NCBI GenBank assembly: GCA_013626165.1
Contig: NDHX01000003.1
Coordinates: 115-64,114 of the forward strand
From: Candidatus Velesiimonas alkalicola
Lineage (GTDB): Bacteria; Omnitrophota; Gorgyraeia; Velesiimonadales; Velesiimonadaceae
DNA length: 64,000 nt
Direction of reading: 5' to 3'
Made by a program: the position numbers and the translations under genes. Position 1 is the first letter of the stretch, and each line of letters begins with the position of its first letter. The notes under the pieces were generated by a model. That model made no database searches and was not told where the DNA came from. It was given only the letters and a program-made list of their open reading frames with translations. This document shows, in pieces, positions 1 through 63,230 of the stretch.

Positions 1-2527
1 ACTACCCCGTCAACCTTCGGTTGACACCCCTTCAAAGAAGGGGAATTCTGACGGGGTGTTTTCAATTCTTTTGAAATACCTGATTTATCATAAGCCAAAA
101 CTTTTTTCATTCTCGGTAAAACCACGCTGTAAAAATGCTCACCCATTTCAACGCCAAGCCATTTTCTGCCAAGTTTATGCGCAACTGCGGTTGTCGTGCC
201 AGAGCCGAGGAAGAAGTCAAGAATTAGGTTTTCTCTTTCTGATGTGCTTTCAATTACCCTCTTTAAGACAATTTCTGCGTTCTCTGTTTGAAAGCCGATA
301 GTAAAAGTATATCCTTGAACATCTGTCCAATTAGTGTCCAAGGGTATCTTTTCTGATTCTAAATATTGTGGAATACCTGTTTTTTCGTTTATTCGTATTC
401 TTTCTTCAGATGCTAATTTGTCAAATTTTTCTTGAGAGAATCGCCAGTGTTGACCGGGAGGACACTTATATTCCTTTCCAAAAATTATAACTGTATTTTT
501 CTCTTTATTCTCTTTGGGAGAAAGACAATTAACCCATTTGATTTCTCTGTTTCTCTCTTTGAAAACTGGCAGAAAATAACTTAATATAGTTTTAGGATAA
601 TAAAACAATGATTCATTTGCTGGATTAAAGTTGTTTAATGGGCCTTGACTATTTGCTTTTCTTAAAATAATCTCTCTAAAATTATTTTTATTGTCTGAAA
701 ATAATTCATCCATCAAACACCTTACAATCCAATTCCCATTGTAGTCGCACCTAACAAAAATACTCCCTTTTTTATTTAAAACATCTTTTGCAATCTTTAA
801 TCTATTTTCAAGCAGTGTTGCCCAGTTGGCGTCTTTATAGTTTGTGCGGTATAAAAACTGGTCAGAAGAAGCTAAATTAAACGGCGGGTCAATGTAAATT
901 GTCTGCACTTTTTCTTTGAATTTCGGCAGGATTGTATTTAACGCCTGATAGTTTTCGGACTTTATCAGCCAGCCGTCTAAAGATTTATCTAAATCGTCAA
1001 ACTGGCTCAAAATTTCAAGTTCTAAATCCTTGAAATATTTTGTGTCTATGGGTAAATGCTTAAATTCCCCTTTTATTAAAAGGGGTGTCTGCGGAGCAGA
1101 CGGGGTATTTTCTTTTATCCAACTTTGTATTTGTTCAATAACCGAATTAATGCTTTTTTTTACATCTATATCTCTAAAATGAAGAACTTTTAATCCTAAA
1201 GATTGCAAATATTTCTCTCGTTCTTCATCACATTCAATTTTAAAATTGTGGCTTTCACCATCTATCTCAATTACTAATCTCAAATTTGGACAATAAAAAT
1301 CAACAATGCAATTACCTATGATTTGTTGACGAGTAAAGTCAAATCTTAATTTTTTATTTTTTAATTCATTCCATAAAAGAACCTCTGATAAATTTCCGGC
1401 CTTTCTTAATTCCCTTGCCCTTTGTTTTAAGTTTTGATTGTATGGTAATTTTAAATACCCCGTCAGTCCTTCGGACCGCCACCCCTTTACAAAAGGGGAA
1501 TTTTCAAAAACATCTTCTATCTTAAAATTTTCATCCACAATGCCAAGTTCCTGCCATTCTTTGATTTGCTCTCTAAAATTTTTATGCTTCAAGATTCTCT
1601 CTAATAAATTCCCCTCTTTTAGAGGGGTGTCTGCGAAAGCAGACGGGGTGTTTGCCTCTTTTAGAGGGGTGTCTGCGAAAGCAGACGGGGTGTTAGTCAG
1701 TTTATCTTTTAAATACTCTAATACTTCTTCCAAATTTTTCTTTACATCTAGATCAGAAATATGAATAACTTTGAGCCCAAGACTTTTTAAGCAATTATCT
1801 CTTTCTTTGTCATATTCTATCTTTCCATCGTGACTTACTCCGTCAATTTCAATAACAACTCCCAAATTCTTACAATAAAAATCAACTATATAATCTCCTA
1901 TAATTTTTTGTCTATCAAAATCTAAACTCAAAAATTTTTTATTTTTAACTTGATCCCAGAATAAAACTTCTGATAAATTGCCGGCTTTTCTTAACTCTTT
2001 TGCTCTTTCTTTTAGGTCAGGATTAAATGGTAATTCCTTCCATTTGACTACCCCGTCAGGCTTCGCCTGCCACCCCTTCGTAGAAGGGGAATTCTTGTAA
2101 ATCCTATCCAGCGTAATCACATAATTTGAGTTTTTGACAAACTTCGGCTTGTTCCAGATATTTACCAGTTCATCTTCAAACTGCGAGATAAAATCAATAA
2201 TTTTGAAAGCGATGCCTTTGAGAATTTGTAGTTGATTGACTCTATCCGCGCCCCACTCTTTGGCTCCTTCCCAAAAATACTGATAACTCCAAAGTTTAAA
2301 TTGCTCCTGCAAGAATGCTTTGGCATTTTTGTTGATAAAGAAATCAACCTCGCTCTGCTTTTCAAAAACTCTAAAAGCGCGTTCTAATTGTTCTTCGGTA
2401 ATTGCTATGCCTTTTCTCTTGATGGCTTTTAAGAGCTCGTCCTGTTTTGTTTTTGCACCTCCTTCTGAATACTGAACGTCAAAAACAATGGTGGCGCCTG
2501 CCCCGTAGGAAGCCGAAGGCTTTCCCA
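1..2527 (-). CDS. Composite DNA methyltransferase, continuation and C-terminal part (partial, runs off window start). Reading 5' to 3' on the minus strand it encodes: an N-terminal extension region, two tandem DUF559 / Vsr-like PD-(D/E)xK domains (~1860-1700 and ~1330-1170), then a beta-class amino-methyltransferase (motif IV IYIDPPFN at ~885, motif I DFFLGSGTT at ~175). No ATG start exists in this frame, so it is best read as joined to the 2429..3130 ORF through a frameshift. Type III Mod-like.
   Basis: Manual minus-strand translation gives one continuous open frame from ~2527 down to nt 1. Recognisable segments include VDFYCPNLRLVIEIDGESHNFKIECDEEREKYLQSLGLKV (DUF559), a second diverged copy (VDFYC...VIEIDGVSHD), QTIYIDPPFNL and LILDFFLGSGTTTAVAHKLGRKWLGVE. 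Five REP-like GC-rich elements are translated in-frame. Confidence 0.6.
6..58. repeat. GC-rich double-hairpin REP-like element (family A), copy in the methyltransferase C-terminal coding region
   Basis: ccccgtcaaccttcggttgacaccccttcaaagaaggggaattctgacggggtg. Nested hairpins GTCAACC/GGTTGAC and CCCCTT/AAGGGG. Confidence 0.7.
1063..1107. repeat. Family A REP-like element (in-frame in CDS)
   Basis: aattccccttttattaaaaggggtgtctgcggagcagacggggta. Encodes ...NTPSAPQTPLLIKGEF... Confidence 0.7.
1456..1503. repeat. Family A REP-like element (in-frame in CDS)
   Basis: taccccgtcagtccttcggaccgccacccctttacaaaaggggaatt. Encodes NSPFVKGWRSEGLTGYLK. Confidence 0.7.
1608..1693. repeat. Family A REP-like element, tandem duplicated (in-frame in CDS)
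   Basis: Two copies of cctcttttagaggggtgtctgcgaaagcagacggggtg. Encodes NTPSAFADTPLKEANTPSAFADTPLKE. Confidence 0.7.
2048..2096. repeat. Family A REP-like element (in-frame in CDS)
   Basis: ctaccccgtcaggcttcgcctgccaccccttcgtagaaggggaattc. Confidence 0.7.
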
Positions 2528-3344: not shown

Positions 3345-3568
3345 TATTGTGGTATTAAAATAATAATATGTATGTAGAGTAATCGCTATCTATAATTATA
3401 ATACAAAATGATTTTCATAATATAAAAAGATTTTTTGAGAAGTTTAATTTCAAATGCATGTGCACCCCAATAATAGAACGCTTTGCGTTCACTACGGGGC
3501 AGGAAGAAGGGATGGACCAAGGGCATTTACCTTTTTTCTTTTCTAAAAATCGGCGGGCTAATTCAATT

Positions 3569-3681: not shown

Positions 3682-3751
3682 ATGACAAATGTCAAAATCC
3701 AAATGTCATTTGAGATTTGTCATTTGTCATTTATTTCCCATTTGTCATTTG
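3682..3751. repeat. Tandem and inverted TGTCATTTG 9-mer repeats (5-6 copies) upstream of tRNA-Val
   Basis: atgacaaatgtcaaaatccaaatgtcatttgagatttgtcatttgtcatttatttcccatttgtcatttg. Confidence 0.6.
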
Positions 3752-7946: not shown

Positions 7947-8465
7947 TTATTTCCTTTTCTGGGTATAAGATTCGTTTAATCCTTTTATAATATCGGATGA
8001 CCTATCAAGTTCAGGCCTACCATAAACAACAACCGCTTCAGCCATATTCAGCACTATGTCATAGCCCTGTTTTTCGGCATATTCCTTCACATAGTCTTTT
8101 ATTTCTTGGATAATTTTTCTCAATGCATCATCTCTTGTTTTTGCCATTTCAGACCTTGATTGCTGGTCAAATTCCTGGAGTTTCTTCATTTTATCTTCTA
8201 TCAAGGGTTGTTTTTCTTGTTTTCCCTCAGGGGTTAGCAGGGCAGATTTATCCCTTAACTGCCGTATTTCCTCAACTATCTTCTCTCTTTGTTCCTGTCT
8301 TAATCTATCTTTTTGCTCCAAAGTAGATTCTGCATCTTTTGTTGCTTCATATTCAGAAAATACCTTGGAGAAGTTTATATAAACAATGTTTAAATTCTGT
8401 TGCGGATATAAACTTGTCAAAGAACAAAAACAAAAAATCAAAAAACTAAAAAAAATCTTTTTCAT
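7947..8465 (-). CDS. skp: OmpH/Skp family periplasmic chaperone
   Basis: 172 aa. Signal peptide followed by a coiled-coil. Positioned upstream of lpxD as in Gram-negative bacteria. Confidence 0.75.
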   Translation of the reverse strand: MKKIFFSFLIFCFCSLTSLYPQQNLNIVYINFSKVFSEYEATKDAESTLEQKDRLRQEQREKIVEEIRQLRDKSALLTPEGKQEKQPLIEDKMKKLQEFDQQSRSEMAKTRDDALRKIIQEIKDYVKEYAEKQGYDIVLNMAEAVVVYGRPELDRSSDIIKGLNESYTQKRK

Positions 8466-8614
8466 CTTCCCTCCTGTTTATTCCATTATAACATTTATTT
8501 AAGATTTTACAAGAATTTTAAAATATAATATCAGGAACGGGAACGGACATCCCTGCCAGCCGACAAGTCCTGGTGCACTGGTGCTCTGGTGCTCTGGTGT
8601 TCTTGTGCCTTAGG

Positions 8615-29533: not shown

Positions 29534-29827
29534 AAAATTTTTTTAATCAACTTGTCCACCTTAACATCCAACACAGATGCAATTTTTGACAGAGTATCAA
29601 TTGTTGGTGGTGCATATAGAAATCGAACCATGCATCCCCGAACTTCCGCAAACAAAGAGGCTTTGCCCCTCTGGTATCACCCCTTGAATACTGGGGAAGC
29701 CTCTTCCCCAGACCCCTTCTATGACGCGGGTATATTCTATTACCTATTTTCTGCACTTCATTCAATATCTTTTATCTTTTTTCCTACCTCCTACCTACTA
29801 TCTCCTATCTCCTATCTCCTATCTTTT

Positions 29828-30178: not shown

Positions 30179-30294
30179 AATCTTTAAATCTGTATAATTT
30201 TGAACTTAAAAATCCGAATTTTAATTGAATTTTAAAAACATTCAAAATTGGAAATTAAAAACTCATCCCCTACCTACTATCTACTATCTCCTAT

Positions 30295-30834
30295 CTACTG
30301 TCTTTTTGCCTCTCTTGTTTCTCTTTCTATCTGACGTTTTTTAATTTTTTCTCTTTTGTCAAAGATACGTTTTCCCTTGCATAATGCAATCTCAATTTTT
30401 GTAAATCCTTTTTTAAAATACACCTTTAAAGGGACAAGTGTACAACCTTTCTGCGTAAGATATCCGATAATTTTTTTAACCTCGTAATTATGTAAAAGGA
30501 GCCTCCTGGGCCTTTTGGGGTCAATCTTCTCAAGTGCACCAGATGTATAGGGTGCTATATGCATATTAAAAAGCACAATACCTGATGAATCAGCCCTTGC
30601 ATATGCATCGCTTATTTCAACATCACCCTGCCTTATTGATTTTACCTCGCTTCCTTTTAATGATATTCCCGCTTCCCATTTCTGGAGTATCAGATAAGTA
30701 TAATATGCCTTCTTGTTGGTTGCAACTGCTCTTTCTTCCACTTGTGTATAATACCATAAAAAATAATGTTCTACAAGATTCCAGCCTGTCCTTGCTAATC
30801 TGTGGCAAGGCAGGCTCGTAAAACTTGGAAGCAA
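30295..30834 (-). CDS. smpB: SsrA-binding protein SmpB (true start probably downstream of the first ATG)
   Basis: NKKAYYTYLILQKWEAGISLKGSEVKSIRQG... The ORF-track N-terminus looks like an extension. Confidence 0.8.
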   Translation of the reverse strand: MLPSFTSLPCHRLARTGWNLVEHYFLWYYTQVEERAVATNKKAYYTYLILQKWEAGISLKGSEVKSIRQGDVEISDAYARADSSGIVLFNMHIAPYTSGALEKIDPKRPRRLLLHNYEVKKIIGYLTQKGCTLVPLKVYFKKGFTKIEIALCKGKRIFDKREKIKKRQIERETREAKRQ

Positions 30835-32248: not shown

Positions 32249-32440
32249 AGTATCTATTATAAATACTTTCTAATATTAAAACAATAAAAAATTTATTTTT
32301 ACATGGAGAAACGGGAAGGAACACATCCCTGCCCCGATCCCTGTTTGCACAAGGGCAAGTTTATCGAGGAAGAAGAAAAATGGAGAAAAATGGGGTCAAC
32401 TCTATTTTTCTTTAACAATTTGTGCTATGATAAACCAACT

Positions 32441-33139
32441 ATGCCAAGATCCTTACGAATTACTCTTCCAAATCTGCCTTTCCATGTCCTTGACCGGGGG
32501 AACAATCGTCAAGTAGTTTTCCGAGACGAGCAAAATTTTATTTATTTCCTTAAATTATTGAAAAGATATAAAAAGGAGTTGAAATTCAAGCTCTACCACT
32601 TTTGCCTGATGCCAAACCATATCCATTTAGTGATTGAGCCGACAATTGATGGCAGCCTACCTAAGATTATGATGAGACTTACCCTGGCTTACTCTTCGTA
32701 TTTCAATAAAAAGTATGGTGGAGTAGGTCATGTCTGGCAGGGGAGATATAAAAGTTCTTTAATAGATAGAGAAGAATATTTTATCTGGTGTGGATTATAT
32801 GTAGAGTTAAATCCAGTAAGAGCAGGACTGGTAGTTCGGTCAGAAGATTGGCGATGGTCAAGTTATAATTTCTATGCCTTTGGGCCAGGCGATCCCTTAA
32901 TAGAAGGATTAATTGATGTCGATTCTTATTATTTAAAATTAGGAGAGACTTCAGAAGAACGTCAAAAAAGATACCGCCAGAACGTAGAGGAAGTAATAAA
33001 AGAAAAATTTTTGCAAGATATTCGAAAGAAATTAGATGAAGGAGTTTTTGGAAGTTTAGAATTTATTAAAGCAATGAAAGAGAAATTTAAAATTAAATCG
33101 TTAATGGGTAGAGGAAGACCAAGGAGGGAGGAAAAATAG
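32441..33139 (+). mobile_element. REP-associated tyrosine transposase (RAYT; IS200/IS605 Y1 HUH transposase family), single copy, plus strand
   Basis: MPRSLRITLPNLPFHVLDRGNNRQVVF...LYHFCLMPNHIHLVIEP (HuH)...GHVWQGRYKS (catalytic Y). The ORF track starts at 32303, but the internal ATG at 32441 matches the family N-terminus. Confidence 0.75.
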
Positions 33140-33166
33140 AGTTGACCCCATTTTCCCCTGACATAT

Positions 33167-35423: not shown

Positions 35424-35524
35424 CATTCCCCTTTGAGTAAAGGGGTGTCCCGACTTTGTCGGGACAGGGTATTTCCCTTTTGTAGGGTTGTGTCTTGTGA
35501 ATACCCCGTCAGGCTTCGCTCGCC
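35424..35524. repeat. Intergenic cluster of family A REP-like elements (between the TPR gene and ilvE)
   Basis: cattcccctttgagtaaaggggtgtcccgactttgtcgggacagggta ... ataccccgtcaggcttcgctcgcc. The ORF-track 69-aa ORF 35423..35632 is just its translation. Confidence 0.7.
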
Positions 35525-36531: not shown

Positions 36532-36651
36532 GTCTCCTCCTAAAAACATAGTATATAGGAATTGGTAGGTAGGAGATAGGGGAAAATATAATCCACCCAA
36601 CCCTCCTTTATAAAAGGAGGGTTATTTTTCCTACCTACTACCTACTATCTA

Positions 36652-37845
36652 CTATCTACTATCTACTGCCTCCTGTTTTTTAAATACCTGTTCAACATCT
36701 TTATCTCCTCTGCCTGACAGGCAGATAATAATTATTTTATCTTTCAAGGCTCTGGCATTTTTTCTAACATATGCAACAGCATGTGCAGGTTCAAGGGCAG
36801 GTATGATGCCCTCTACTTCTGAAAGGAAATGGAATCCGCTGAGTGCTTCTGCATCTGTGATTGTAAAATATTTTGCTCTTCCCGTTTGTTTTAGATATGA
36901 ATGTTCAGGACCAACACCGGGATAATCAAGCCCGGCAGATATTGAATGTGCAATGCTTATCTGACCATTTTTATCCTGTAGAATATAACTCTTGCTACCG
37001 TGGAGTATTCCTATTTTTCCATAACAAAGTGTTGCAGCATGCCTGCCTGTTTTTATGCCAAAACCTGCTGCTTCAACACCTATAAGTTTAACATTTTTAT
37101 CTTTTATAAACGGATAAAAGAGCCCCATTGAATTTGAACCGCCGCCAACACAGGCAATCAAACAATCAGGAAGTTTTCCTTCACATTTTAATATCTGTTT
37201 TTTTGCCTCTTTTCCAATAACAGATTGAAAATCTCTTACCATCATTGGAAAAGGATGTGGACCTGCAACAGAACCTATCACATAATGTGTGTTTCTTACA
37301 TTGGTTACCCAATCCCTCATAGCCTCGTTCATTGCATCTTTTAGTGTCTTTGAACCCATATATACGGGATTTACCTTTGCACCAAGAAGCTGCATCCTGA
37401 ACACATTCAACCTCTGTCTTTCAATGTCCTCTTCCCCCATATATATCTCACACTTAAGACCAAATAAAGAAGAGGCTGTGGCAGTTGCAACTCCATGCTG
37501 GCCGGCGCCGGTTTCTGCAATGATCCTTTGCTTTCCTATTTTTTTTGCAAGTAAAATTTGACCCAGAGTATTATTTATCTTATGAGCACCCATATGGCAC
37601 AAATCTTCTCTTTTAAGATATATCTTTGGCCCTCTTAAAACATGAGAAAGATGTTTTGCATAATAAAGCGGTGTGGGTCTTCCGGCATAATTTTCCAGAT
37701 ACCACTTCAGTTCTTTCTGAAATTCAGTGTCTTTCTTTGCCTTTGTGTATGCTGTTTCAAGTTCATCAAGAGCAAACATCAATGTCTCAGGAACAAACCT
37801 GCCGCCGAACTGACCAAAATGTCCTTTTTTATCCGGTAATTTCAT
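36652..37845 (-). CDS. trpB: Tryptophan synthase beta chain
   Basis: 397 aa. [33 protein letters not shown]. Confidence 0.85.
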
Positions 37846-39125: not shown

Positions 39126-39245
39126 GTTACAGGTAACAGGGAAAAGCCGTACTCTGTATCCCGTCGCCCGTATTCCGTATACCGCATTCCATAAAAGATA
39201 CTTACGACGATACACGAACGACGGCTTTTCCCCGTTACCTCGTCA
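39126..39245. repeat. Family B intergenic repeat (MITE-like), copy 2, with ~19-bp terminal inverted repeats
   Basis: TIRs ggtaacagggaaaagccgt ... acggcttttccccgttacc flank the same ~63-bp core. Lies between yceD and rpmF. Confidence 0.6.
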
Positions 39246-39249
39246 TCTG

Positions 39250-39720
39250 TCACCTCGTCACCTGTTTTTTTAGTTTTTCTATACTTTTTATTCTACTTCT
39301 ATGAAATCTATCATCCTGCACACACTGACATTTTTCTTCATTTAGGTTTTTTCCGCATTTTGGACAAAGTCCTCTGCAATCGGGTGTGCAAAGCATCCTT
39401 ATAGGATAGTCTAAAATGAGTTCTTCTCTTACATCCTTTGTTATATCTGCCCCTTCCTTCTGGTTAATAGAATATGTAAATAAAAACTGCTTTTGTAGTT
39501 TTAACATAGATGTTTTAAGACATCTGGCACAAACAAACTCAAATGAAAAATTAACATCGGTAATGATATCAACCTTGCCGCCGTTTTTTATAACATCGCA
39601 TCTTATAATAACAGGGGATTGGATTTTTATATCCTTACGGTCAAGATCAATTTGCTCAGGTGCAAGTATCTCCTCTTTCAAAAGCCCGCTGGCCGGTATC
39701 TCACTAAGTTTTATTTTCAT
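39250..39720 (-). CDS. yceD: YceD/DUF177 family protein (23S rRNA accumulation protein)
   Basis: 156 aa. C-terminal CxxC...CxxC. Classic position upstream of rpmF-plsX. Confidence 0.75.
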   Translation of the reverse strand: MKIKLSEIPASGLLKEEILAPEQIDLDRKDIKIQSPVIIRCDVIKNGGKVDIITDVNFSFEFVCARCLKTSMLKLQKQFLFTYSINQKEGADITKDVREELILDYPIRMLCTPDCRGLCPKCGKNLNEEKCQCVQDDRFHRSRIKSIEKLKKQVTR

Positions 39721-44399: not shown

Positions 44400-44636
44400 T
44401 CATCCTCTACGAATAATTAAACATCCCTGCCCGCCTTTATCTACCATTTTTATTGCCATATCCGGACATATGATTGCACAGATACCACAACCAGCACACT
44501 CCTTCGTTAAATATTCAACAGTTTGGACACCTGACTGTGTAACCTGTTTTGATAAATACAAAACTTTTTTAGGACAGTACATAACACACAGACCACAGCC
44601 TTTGCATCTGTTCTTATTTATTATTATTTTAGACAT
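44400..44636 (-). CDS. korD: 4Fe-4S ferredoxin delta subunit of the oxidoreductase
   Basis: 78 aa. Two CxxCxxCxxxCP motifs. Confidence 0.8.
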   Translation of the reverse strand: MSKIIINKNRCKGCGLCVMYCPKKVLYLSKQVTQSGVQTVEYLTKECAGCGICAIICPDMAIKMVDKGGQGCLIIRRG

Positions 44637-44768: not shown

Positions 44769-44810
44769 AATTCCCCTCTTATAAGGGGGTGTCCTAAAAG
44801 GGACGGGGTG
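44769..44810. repeat. Intergenic family A REP-like element (between korD and the NTase-fold gene)
   Basis: aattcccctcttataagggggtgtcctaaaagggacggggtg. Confidence 0.7.
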
Positions 44811-44811
44811 T

Positions 44812-45396
44812 TTAAGAGTGTTGCAGCATTTTTAATTTTCTAAACCGTTTATCTTTATGCACAATTTTTGAAAGATTTAATGCCTTCTCCTTTTCCTTTT
44901 GCCCCATCACTGAAAGTAAATTCAAGATATCGTATTCATCTTTTAAGCCCCCGGCTTGAAGCTTCATTGCCACAAGATATGGCTTTGAAAAACAAGGAAA
45001 AGCAAGCCCTAAATCCTCTGCATTTTCAAGAGCTTCTATTTCCCATCCATAATGTGCAAATAAAATATCTATTGTCGGACACTCGCCCTCAATATGAGCA
45101 ATCCGTATAAGTGAATGTTTAAGGGGGTCTGAAATATTTGTAAAAGGTTTGTATTCAACATTAAAATCTAAAAGTTTTTGCTTCAAAAAAATAAAAAGGT
45201 TTTCAGGGTCAATCTCTTTCTGATTCTTATCAGTTATAACTACACATAAATCAACATCCATTGTTGTTCTCGGCACACCCTGCGAAATGATCGCCTGCCC
45301 ACCGATTAAAGCAGCCTTAATGTTGCAATTTTTTAATCTGCTAAACTTCTCTAAATTTTTTTTGACCAATCTTAAGGTACTCTTGATAGACTTCAT
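44812..45396 (-). CDS. Nucleotidyltransferase-fold protein (minimal NTase motif GGQAIISQGVPRTTMDVDL); start uncertain
   Basis: 194 aa. Overlaps the upstream small ORF by 56 nt. Confidence 0.45.
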   Translation of the reverse strand: MKSIKSTLRLVKKNLEKFSRLKNCNIKAALIGGQAIISQGVPRTTMDVDLCVVITDKNQKEIDPENLFIFLKQKLLDFNVEYKPFTNISDPLKHSLIRIAHIEGECPTIDILFAHYGWEIEALENAEDLGLAFPCFSKPYLVAMKLQAGGLKDEYDILNLLSVMGQKEKEKALNLSKIVHKDKRFRKLKMLQHS

Positions 45397-50258: not shown

Positions 50259-50410
50259 GGTATTAACAGGTTAAGGTTTCAGGGTTTCAGGGTTTTAGGG
50301 TTTCAAGGATTCTACTACGATTTAATCTTGATGTTTTACCCTTGATACCTCGATCCCTTAATGCCTTGACGCCTAAATATTAAATTAAACTATAACCATA
50401 CTTAAAGATA

Positions 50411-63148: not shown

Positions 63149-63230
63149 AATTCCTCCTTGGAGCCAGTTACCAGAGCACCAGTCACCAGAGCACCAGTGC
63201 ACCAGTCACCAGTGCACCAGTCTCCGGTCT

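Follow-up and report, generated by a model that had tools for sequence, protein, structure and literature searches.

A TIRtron in an Omnitrophota contig: a short RAYT-like Y1/HUH gene between two inverted 24-nt repeats

To which kind of repeat does a lone Y1/HUH transposase gene belong, and what do gene and repeat form together? The question is raised by a 64,000-nt stretch of DNA from Candidatus Velesiimonas alkalicola (Omnitrophota; GenBank assembly GCA_013626165.1, contig NDHX01000003.1, positions 115 to 64,114 of the forward strand), the whole of which is called the window below and supplies the coordinates used for it. An original prediction had read an open reading frame (ORF) on its plus strand as a domesticated REP-associated tyrosine transposase (RAYT; REP, repetitive extragenic palindrome) and had tied it to a dispersed family of GC-rich hairpins. 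We find that window 32387–33154 is a 768-bp TIRtron, with a TIRYT gene lying between two inverted 24-nt arms. The gene is enclosed by a perfect inverted repeat, AAAATGGGGTCAACTCTATTTTTC, whose left arm (left terminal inverted repeat, TIR-L; 32387–32410, plus strand) and right arm (TIR-R; 33131–33154, minus strand) are complementary at 24/24 positions. This 24-mer occurs twice in the window, as these two arms, against 0 occurrences expected by chance. As read from the sequence, neither arm contains GTAG or CTAC. The gene is therefore tied to a short repeated element, as had been proposed, but that element is the 24-nt inverted repeat and not the GC-rich hairpin family; likewise, the flanks of the gene, proposed as the place to look for REP pairs, carry this repeat without a GTAG tag. 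Among its neighbours, the cassette lies 12 bp past the purA stop codon and 138 bp upstream of rmuC.

To characterize the encoded protein, we started from the predicted ORF, which is indeed present (32303–33139, plus strand, 278 aa). Its first codon was misplaced, however: the true start is assigned to ATG 32441 (MPRSLRITL, 232 aa), because all 67 aligned close homologues begin there, with MPR or MAR, at a length of ~232 aa. Ahead of that ATG, the 278-aa frame has 46 extra codons, which read across the left repeat and intergenic DNA of the host. The deposited gene call (locus in GCA_002581605.1) is this longer frame and thus 46 codons too long, while an exact-sequence look-up of the 232-aa protein returned no record. 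The protein matches Pfam Y1_Tnp (PF01797) at E=6.8e-15, with no other Pfam domain at E<=0.1, bearing out the predicted Y1/HUH fold. It scores 72.1 bits against the NCBIfam model REP_Tyr_transpos (NF047646), which is under the NCBI cut-off of 80, and 15.5 bits against the IS200 model (NF033573; cut-off 55). Among solved structures, E. coli TnpA-REP (4ER8, E=0.005) is closest in sequence, and when an AlphaFold2 (AF2) model built from 68 homologues (pLDDT 78) was searched with Foldseek, 4er8_A was again the top match (E=1.3e-6, TM score 0.70), followed by the ISDra2 and IS608 TnpA proteins at ~1e-4. By these measures we are dealing with a RAYT-like Y1/HUH enzyme and not with an IS200 transposase. 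To that extent the predicted RAYT identity survives; the score nevertheless stays below the cut-off, TIRYT fits better, and both 'RAYT' and 'IS200 transposase' are imprecise as annotation labels.

The HUH motif is H60-I61-H62 (nt 32618–32626). For the catalytic tyrosine the original prediction had pointed to the motif GRYKS, but the tyrosine of that motif (Y103) varies across the 68-sequence alignment: several relatives have Phe in its place, as does E. coli TnpA-REP. Y120 (nt 32798–32800; GLYVELNP, GLYVELNPVRAG), together with H60 and H62, is invariant across the 68 homologues and 13 distant relatives. Because it is invariant and aligns with Y115 of 4ER8, the residue changed in Y115F, a catalytic mutant of E. 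coli TnpA-REP (Corneloup 2021, PMC8266576), Y120 is taken as the predicted catalytic tyrosine. After the Y1 core the protein continues for ~85 aa, confirming that it carries a C-terminal extension, and ends in GRGRPRREEK, with G225-R226-P227 (33113–33121) invariant among the 68 homologues. RGRP is the core of the AT-hook motif, and a possible target of the GRP tail is the A/T-rich outer part of the repeat. Two further predictions held within the window. Its long ORFs are nearly all on the minus strand, and between ~4.8 and 57.0 kb the TIRYT gene is the only plus-strand ORF of >=150 aa that is free of a longer overlapping minus-strand ORF. Nor was a second copy of the gene seen in the 64 kb: no other ORF of comparable length is similar to it, and the bracketing repeat has no further copy there.

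The unit is compact. TIR-L is weakly self-complementary (GAAAAATgGgG-TCAA-CtCtATTTTTC), and TIR-R covers the last three codons of the gene including its TAG stop (GAA AAA TAG). The stop codon lies within the right arm in the window element and in four of eight distinct relatives that were fetched by protein similarity alone (L001, L085, L213 and L216); in the other four (L002, L003, L211 and L219) the right arm abuts the stop or lies up to ~25 nt past it. Between TIR-L and the gene (32441–33139, plus strand, 232 aa and stop, identified through Pfam, NCBIfam, AF2/Foldseek and alignments) is an extended -10-like element, TGcTATGAT (32423–32431, plus strand), which ends 9 nt before the ATG. Among 14 distinct elements, 8 have the pattern TGnTAnnnT ending 6–9 nt ahead of their start codon, and others have a plain TATAAT-like box there; a consensus scan found no -35 box for the TIRYT gene. 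The extended -10-like box suggests a leaderless or near-leaderless mRNA transcribed from inside the unit. Directly outside TIR-L the left half of the repeat recurs in part (AAGAAAAATGGAG, 32373–32386, plus strand), as a segment that can pair with the 3' half of TIR-L in a predicted 13-bp stem (-7.8 kcal/mol, z=-3.2), and the program TRF reports 2 copies of AGAAAAATGG at 32374–32393. Rfam gave no match at the cassette locus.

The boundaries of the element become apparent from its relatives. A search at E<=1e-5 returned 6129 homologues, and identities are given for the best 120 of these: they are 65–89% identical to the window protein, except for a truncated fragment of that protein itself (P0068; 100% identity over 76% of the query), and those with a source name are labelled as Nealsonbacteria, Parcubacteria, Patescibacteria or Chloroflexi. 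One-genome-per-species data yielded three close relatives in metagenome-assembled genomes (MAGs) of Saccharibacteria (77%), Chloroflexota (72%) and Patescibacteria (68%). When these three loci were compared with the window, a 21-nt core of the repeat, AATGGGGTCAACTCTATTTTT, was unchanged in the left arm and almost unchanged in the right one, coding DNA was ~73% identical, and the sequence beyond the arms was unrelated. Homology to the relatives begins and ends at the outer edges of the arms. Since high protein identity and identical ends occur across phyla together with unrelated flanks, the comparison indicates horizontal transfer of the whole unit between phyla, the host in the present case being, to judge from named purA hits, a Candidatus Omnitrophota bacterium.

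The bracketing of the gene is general. In all nine distinct elements (the window and the eight protein-fetched relatives listed above) the gene stands between inverted copies of the repeat, which are free of GTAG tags. Mean pairwise identity over 12 elements was 71% for gene DNA and 98% for the arms; this set has three members fetched by DNA, and as retrieval by the repeat inflates the value of 98%, the protein-fetched set is the fair sample. The two arms of an element evolve in concert, because a 68%-identical relative (L219:9962 and 10702, also L220) has the same three substitutions in both of them (AATGGTGTCAACTCTGATTTT). The relatives have 1–3 extra repeat copies within +-10 kb.

Copies of the repeat also occur away from the gene. 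The exact 21-mer was found in at least 120 metagenome contigs, and the statistics on gene-less copies given here and below hold among the matches listed (120 contigs, 614 kb). These contain 189 copies at <=2 mismatches, 166 of which are not beside a Y1 gene. The repeat is sharply bounded, with the consensus (g)AAAATGGGGTCAACTCTATTTTT(c/t), and the flanks of the copies are unrelated. Gene-less copies are extragenic (17% fall inside stop-to-stop ORFs of >=120 aa, compared with 69.5% of random positions) and are arranged as singles, '+ then -' doublets and direct arrays. The polarity of the doublets is fixed: 16 close inverted pairs are '+ then -', as around the gene, and 0 are '- then +', with 8 direct pairs besides. 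One 126-nt cassette (L115:302–448) retains, besides the two arms, its 5' leader, its first codons and its last ones, while the interior is gone; by its sequence it is an internal-deletion derivative. Three contigs (L161, L189 and L192) have doublets at an orthologous site, with the arms kept and the 34-nt spacer diverged, and a spacer match indicates that the doublet of L124 is probably at the same site. Altogether the gene-less copies behave like REPs or REPINs, yet the repeat is not a REP, as it has no GTAG tag and folds weakly. Left halves are stacked 5' of 11% of the copies and downstream of 4%; considered as a cleavage signature, this difference was too weak to place a nick. Viral contigs gave 0 matches to the 21-mer and hence no sign of phage carriage, and the literature gave no match for the repeat sequence. 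A third short motif, AAAATAGGGACGTGCACATTTTT, stands beside repeat copies at L103:12150, L107:1950 and L163:165–190. Its architecture, A-tract followed by T-tract, is that of the repeat, and at L202:735–775 a related motif takes the place that the repeat has in L150. The third motif may belong, as its repeat, to a sister clade of transposases.

Is such an element already known? RAYT-like genes with terminal inverted repeats (TIRs) that are not REPs were named TIRYTs/TIRtrons by Di Nocera et al. (2013, PMC3733652); the part of that paper drawn on here describes TIRs as single, dimeric and clustered copies, and states a GGGGWSAS motif for 'some' or 'the majority' of them, so that the motif is not obligatory. 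According to the part of Quentin et al. (2018, PMC6006769) drawn on here, most TIRYTs belong to TnpA-Y1 subclass 2.1, which has a C-terminal helix-turn-helix (HTH)-like domain (Bac_DnaA_C, HTH_23 or HTH_28) and is present in 14.9% of strains. Measured against these portions of the two papers, the window element resembles a TIRtron in its RAYT-like Y1/HUH gene flanked by non-GTAG terminal inverted repeats, in a right repeat that overlaps the 3' end of the gene, in the single, dimeric and clustered occurrence of the repeat, and in a patchy taxonomic distribution, as horizontal transfer predicts. It is unlike the TIRYTs described there in that its protein is ~50 aa shorter (232 vs ~280 aa), lacks the C-terminal HTH and has an invariant GRP tail, and in that its repeat is A/T-rich on the outside and nearly invariant across phyla. 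Among the TIRYT hosts in the same portions we noticed no Omnitrophota, Patescibacteria/Saccharibacteria or Chloroflexota.

The tentative link to subclass 2.1 is through HTH-bearing, TIR-flanked relatives of ~280 aa from many phyla, to which the window protein is 30–46% identical over the first ~220 aa. Their flanking inverted repeats are of the GGGGTCAGGTCTTG or GGGGTCAGTTCTAAC type and usually lie over the stop codon. A core GGGGTCA..TCT is common to the repeats of these relatives (GGGGTCAGGTCT-type) and to that of the window (GGGGTCAACTCT); scored against GGGGWSAS, the window's GGGGTCAA matches at 7/8 positions (the last base is A, not S) and the relatives' GGGGTCAG at 8/8. Nine of ten longer relatives have HTH_23/28/38 or Bac_DnaA_C at about residues 240–285, and the window protein, which aligns with their first ~220 residues, ends before this region. 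Judged by these alignments the element is a TIRtron of a short subfamily without the HTH, for which the RAYT label is less apt. The kind of element is therefore known; what is new is the short, HTH-less form and a repeat that is nearly invariant across phyla.

How might such a cassette work? The reading that we regard as likely is that of a TIRtron in which a self-promoted gene for a Y1/HUH nuclease-ligase lies between two copies of its presumed cognate site and spreads that repeat. Observed are the anatomy, the homology boundaries, arms that are conserved and co-vary, the relationship to the family, a deletion derivative, and gene-less copies whose polarity is fixed. Binding, cleavage and mobilisation are proposed in addition, on the model of TnpA-REP and of the TnpA of IS608. 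The protein would bind the repeat in single-stranded DNA, nick it through Y120 with a metal ion held by the HUH histidines, and rejoin the DNA ends. As a result the two arms would stay identical, extragenic DNA would receive extra repeats in the form of singles, direct arrays and '+ then -' doublets, and the whole cassette would occasionally move, also between phyla.

Several observations weigh against this TIRtron model. The Omnitrophota window holds a bare cassette only: no further copy of the repeat was found in the 64 kb even at <=7 mismatches, and no site of the 8-mer core GGGTCAAC besides the two arms, so that no dissemination is visible in this genome. When folded as DNA the repeat forms a weak hairpin (-2.9 kcal/mol, z=-2.8), unlike classical REP hairpins, with two G.T pairs on one strand and A.C on the other; as a strong palindrome of the REP type it was rejected on this ground. 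No empty site came to light. By purA, the closest relatives are L206 (79%) and L208 (65%); these are not syntenic and have neither rmuC nor a Y1 gene beside purA, which makes pre- and post-insertion states not comparable, and a comparison of L202 with L150, tried as a solo-repeat 'empty site', was not clean, since a different short motif fills the position in L202. Within a lineage the whole cassette moves rarely, because the gene is at one fixed locus across many samples and three MAGs (P0044, one locus in 24 contigs; P0106, one locus in three MAGs). Such stability is the part of the predicted 'domestication' that stands; domestication over the long term does not agree with 68–77% identical proteins and the same repeat in Saccharibacteria, Chloroflexota and Patescibacteria. 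Furthermore, most gene-less copies were retrieved by the repeat itself, so that their density is not estimable. Finally, the TIRYT family is reported to be widespread, yet the searchable literature, in which the name occurs in just two works, yielded no biochemistry for any member.

Could the cassette instead be an autonomous insertion sequence (IS) of the IS200/IS605 type, transposing as a unit via a single-stranded circle? A compact unit with what we infer to be its own promoter, sharp boundaries and distribution across phyla would suit an element of this kind. So would two further arrangements. At the locus of the window gene (32441–33139), seen in four places (L081–L084), three contigs from different assemblies (L082–L084) end inside the transposase gene, which suggests that related copies in the same community confused assembly. 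L163 has a truncated first cassette copy with a variant repeat, AAAAATAGGGGTCAGCCCTATTTTT, that extends to codon 50 (985–1260), and directly after it are a full left repeat and another copy of the gene; nested insertion, partial duplication in tandem and a chimeric assembly could each account for this. The Y1/HUH fold is also that of IS608 and ISDra2 TnpA, and the chemistry, single-strand DNA cleavage and ligation, is presumably common to both. However, the IS200 model gives far less than its cut-off, and the identical sites lie here on opposite strands, whereas the end hairpins of IS608-type elements are both on one strand. The window element has no such asymmetric subterminal left- and right-end hairpins and no tnpB. 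Its gene occurs once in the 64 kb and is not multi-copy in this sequence, and it occupies a single fixed locus in each relative checked. Moreover, most of the repeat copies listed are gene-less and thus REP-like rather than IS-like. We therefore consider an IS200/IS605-type element unlikely, and retain the TIRtron with its repeat-spreading enzyme.

Another explanation would separate the protein from mobility altogether. The repeats would then be host regulatory or structural sites (an operator, a terminator, a portable -35/UP element or a site for a nucleoid protein) and the protein a non-mobile binding or processing factor. The copies are extragenic, as such sites would be, and their orientation is biased relative to the flanking ORFs (115 in the same and 62 in the opposite orientation, or 46 vs 29 when counted by contig; L086–L205), which would fit strand-specific insertion as well as a role linked to transcription. 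The reverse strand, AAAAATAGAGTTGACC, reads as an A-tract followed by a TTGAC -35-like hexamer, pointing outward from both ends, and the orthologous doublets of L161, L189 and L192 keep the repeat while the spacer diverges. On the other hand, the hairpin is weak and a consensus scan calls no terminator, the 21-mer is the same in phyla that differ widely in base composition and in their transcription machinery, the repeat travels with the gene, and an internally deleted cassette (L115) exists. With these points set against it, a purely host-site role appears very unlikely for a repeat that brackets the TIRYT gene in every element compared.

There remains the proposal from which the analysis began. 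The GC-rich family is real: its members are double hairpins of ~50 nt, composed of aAYACCCCGTC, a stem-loop, GACACCCC, a T-rich palindrome and AGGGGAATT, and CCCCGTC/GACGGGG sites number 13 in the window, where 2.1 would be expected; ten lie in its first 2.8 kb. Copies lie at 1–60, 1099, 1458, 1613–1696, 2047–2095, 2627–2773, 35498–35524 and 44773–44814. There is no physical link between this family and the TIRYT gene in the window, because no copy is within 2.3 kb of the gene (the distance of the nearest) and the family has no sequence in common with the repeat. Its CGTC tag is like that of the CGTC repeats in the part of Di Nocera et al. (PMC3733652) drawn on here, although its stems are shorter.

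A second family of palindromes, which is tagged with GTAG (..CCCCGGTAGTAGAACGCTTCGCGTTCACTACGGGGCAGG..), is present at window 2497–2524 and 3466–3503. Palindromes of this family stand directly 3' of gene-less repeats in other contigs (L103:8426 and 12184, L156:2461, L162:291, L187:10062), and among the matches listed a GTAG tag lies <=70 nt from 12/189 repeat copies, against 2.5 expected. This is mosaic clustering of different short repeats in those contigs, a lead and not evidence of mobilisation by the TIRYT.

RAYT genes are reportedly flanked by GC-rich imperfect palindromes that have a 5' GTAG tag and are highly abundant in the genome, and E. coli TnpA-REP, the protein of PDB 4ER8, is said to be such a RAYT, with REP/BIME (bacterial interspersed mosaic element) sequences. 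The window element is like this REPtron in several respects: TnpA-REP is its best match by both sequence and fold, with the HUH motif and the catalytic tyrosine aligned, the gene is bracketed by inverted short repeats, and there are gene-less extragenic copies, often as inverted doublets like REPINs. It is unlike it in that the window repeat has neither a GTAG guide tetranucleotide nor a GC-rich bulged hairpin, being A/T-rich outside a GGGGTCAAC core and weak in its stem at the folding energy given above, and in that this repeat is common to several phyla, with signs of horizontal transfer, rather than lineage-specific. The cleavage rule of classical REP/RAYT pairs, which the original prediction had invoked, is not applicable to a repeat without the GTAG tag. 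A classical domesticated RAYT, vertically inherited, single-copy and mobilising the window's GC-rich hairpins, can appeal to the RAYT-like protein, the genuine hairpin family, the GTAG palindromes near some repeat copies and the stable locus, but is highly improbable given flanks that are not GC-rich members and have no GTAG tag, an NCBIfam score below cut-off, 68–77% identical proteins with identical flanks in other phyla, and an inverted repeat as the feature conserved around the gene in all relatives.

Within the TIRtron interpretation, one extension deserves mention. The 24-nt repeat and the TIRYT without HTH could together be a system, based on HUH chemistry and common to several phyla, by which gene cassettes are recombined; we consider this unlikely, the idea being anecdotal and drawn from about six contigs and one biased enrichment test. 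In L150:7183–10230, direct-orientation repeats separate small type II toxin-antitoxin modules, in an array that starts beside the TIRYT gene. Toxin-antitoxin modules between direct repeats were also seen in L102/L149, L125, L146, L176 and L185; by Pfam the module families are ParE, YafQ, PemK, HicA/HicB and Gp49, and homologous modules stand in a different order in L202/L141. Toxin-antitoxin genes were found near repeats in 30/372 cases compared with 12/425, a comparison biased by query toxins that were drawn from the 'near' set, and the size of ORFs near repeats was little different from that of controls. The likeness of such an array to integron attC sites with their integrase is formal; a single-strand tyrosine nuclease would take the place of the integrase.

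The clade makes it testable whether TIRYTs cut and spread their repeats as RAYTs are thought to spread REPs. It offers a clean system in which to do so, with a small 232-aa protein free of the extra HTH and a 21–24-nt site with hardly any variation over at least four phyla, as well as the co-varying arms of L219, the 126-nt miniature of L115 and more than 100 natural gene-less copies. The cassette is common to phyla of uncultivated groundwater and sediment lineages, including Patescibacteria (candidate phyla radiation, CPR).

Finally, we looked at repeats of the window that lie outside the cassette. The original prediction had noted a flanking motif, aacgggaaggaacacatccctgcc (32310–32333), that was to recur at 8524–8547. 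It is not found at the latter position with <=3 mismatches, but a version with an insertion or deletion is present at 8536–8557. The shared form, AACGGGAA(n)ACATCCCTGCC, is located in both places 60–90 nt upstream of a minus-strand gene (rmuC and an ORF ending at 8465, respectively), in host intergenic DNA outside the cassette, where it may act as a promoter or regulatory element of the host. At 44421 there is a third 11-mer hit, rejected as a copy of the motif since it is inside a coding region. Short tandem arrays with units of 7–8 nt (among them TGTCATT, CTGGTGCT, TCCTATC, CTACCTA and ACCAGTGC) are intergenic and lie at 3704–3751, 8570–8608, 29782–29824, 30270–30303, 36631–36671, 39233–39263, 50275–50305 and 63170–63221; some of their units are repeated far off in the opposite orientation (8570–8599 vs 63184–63206).

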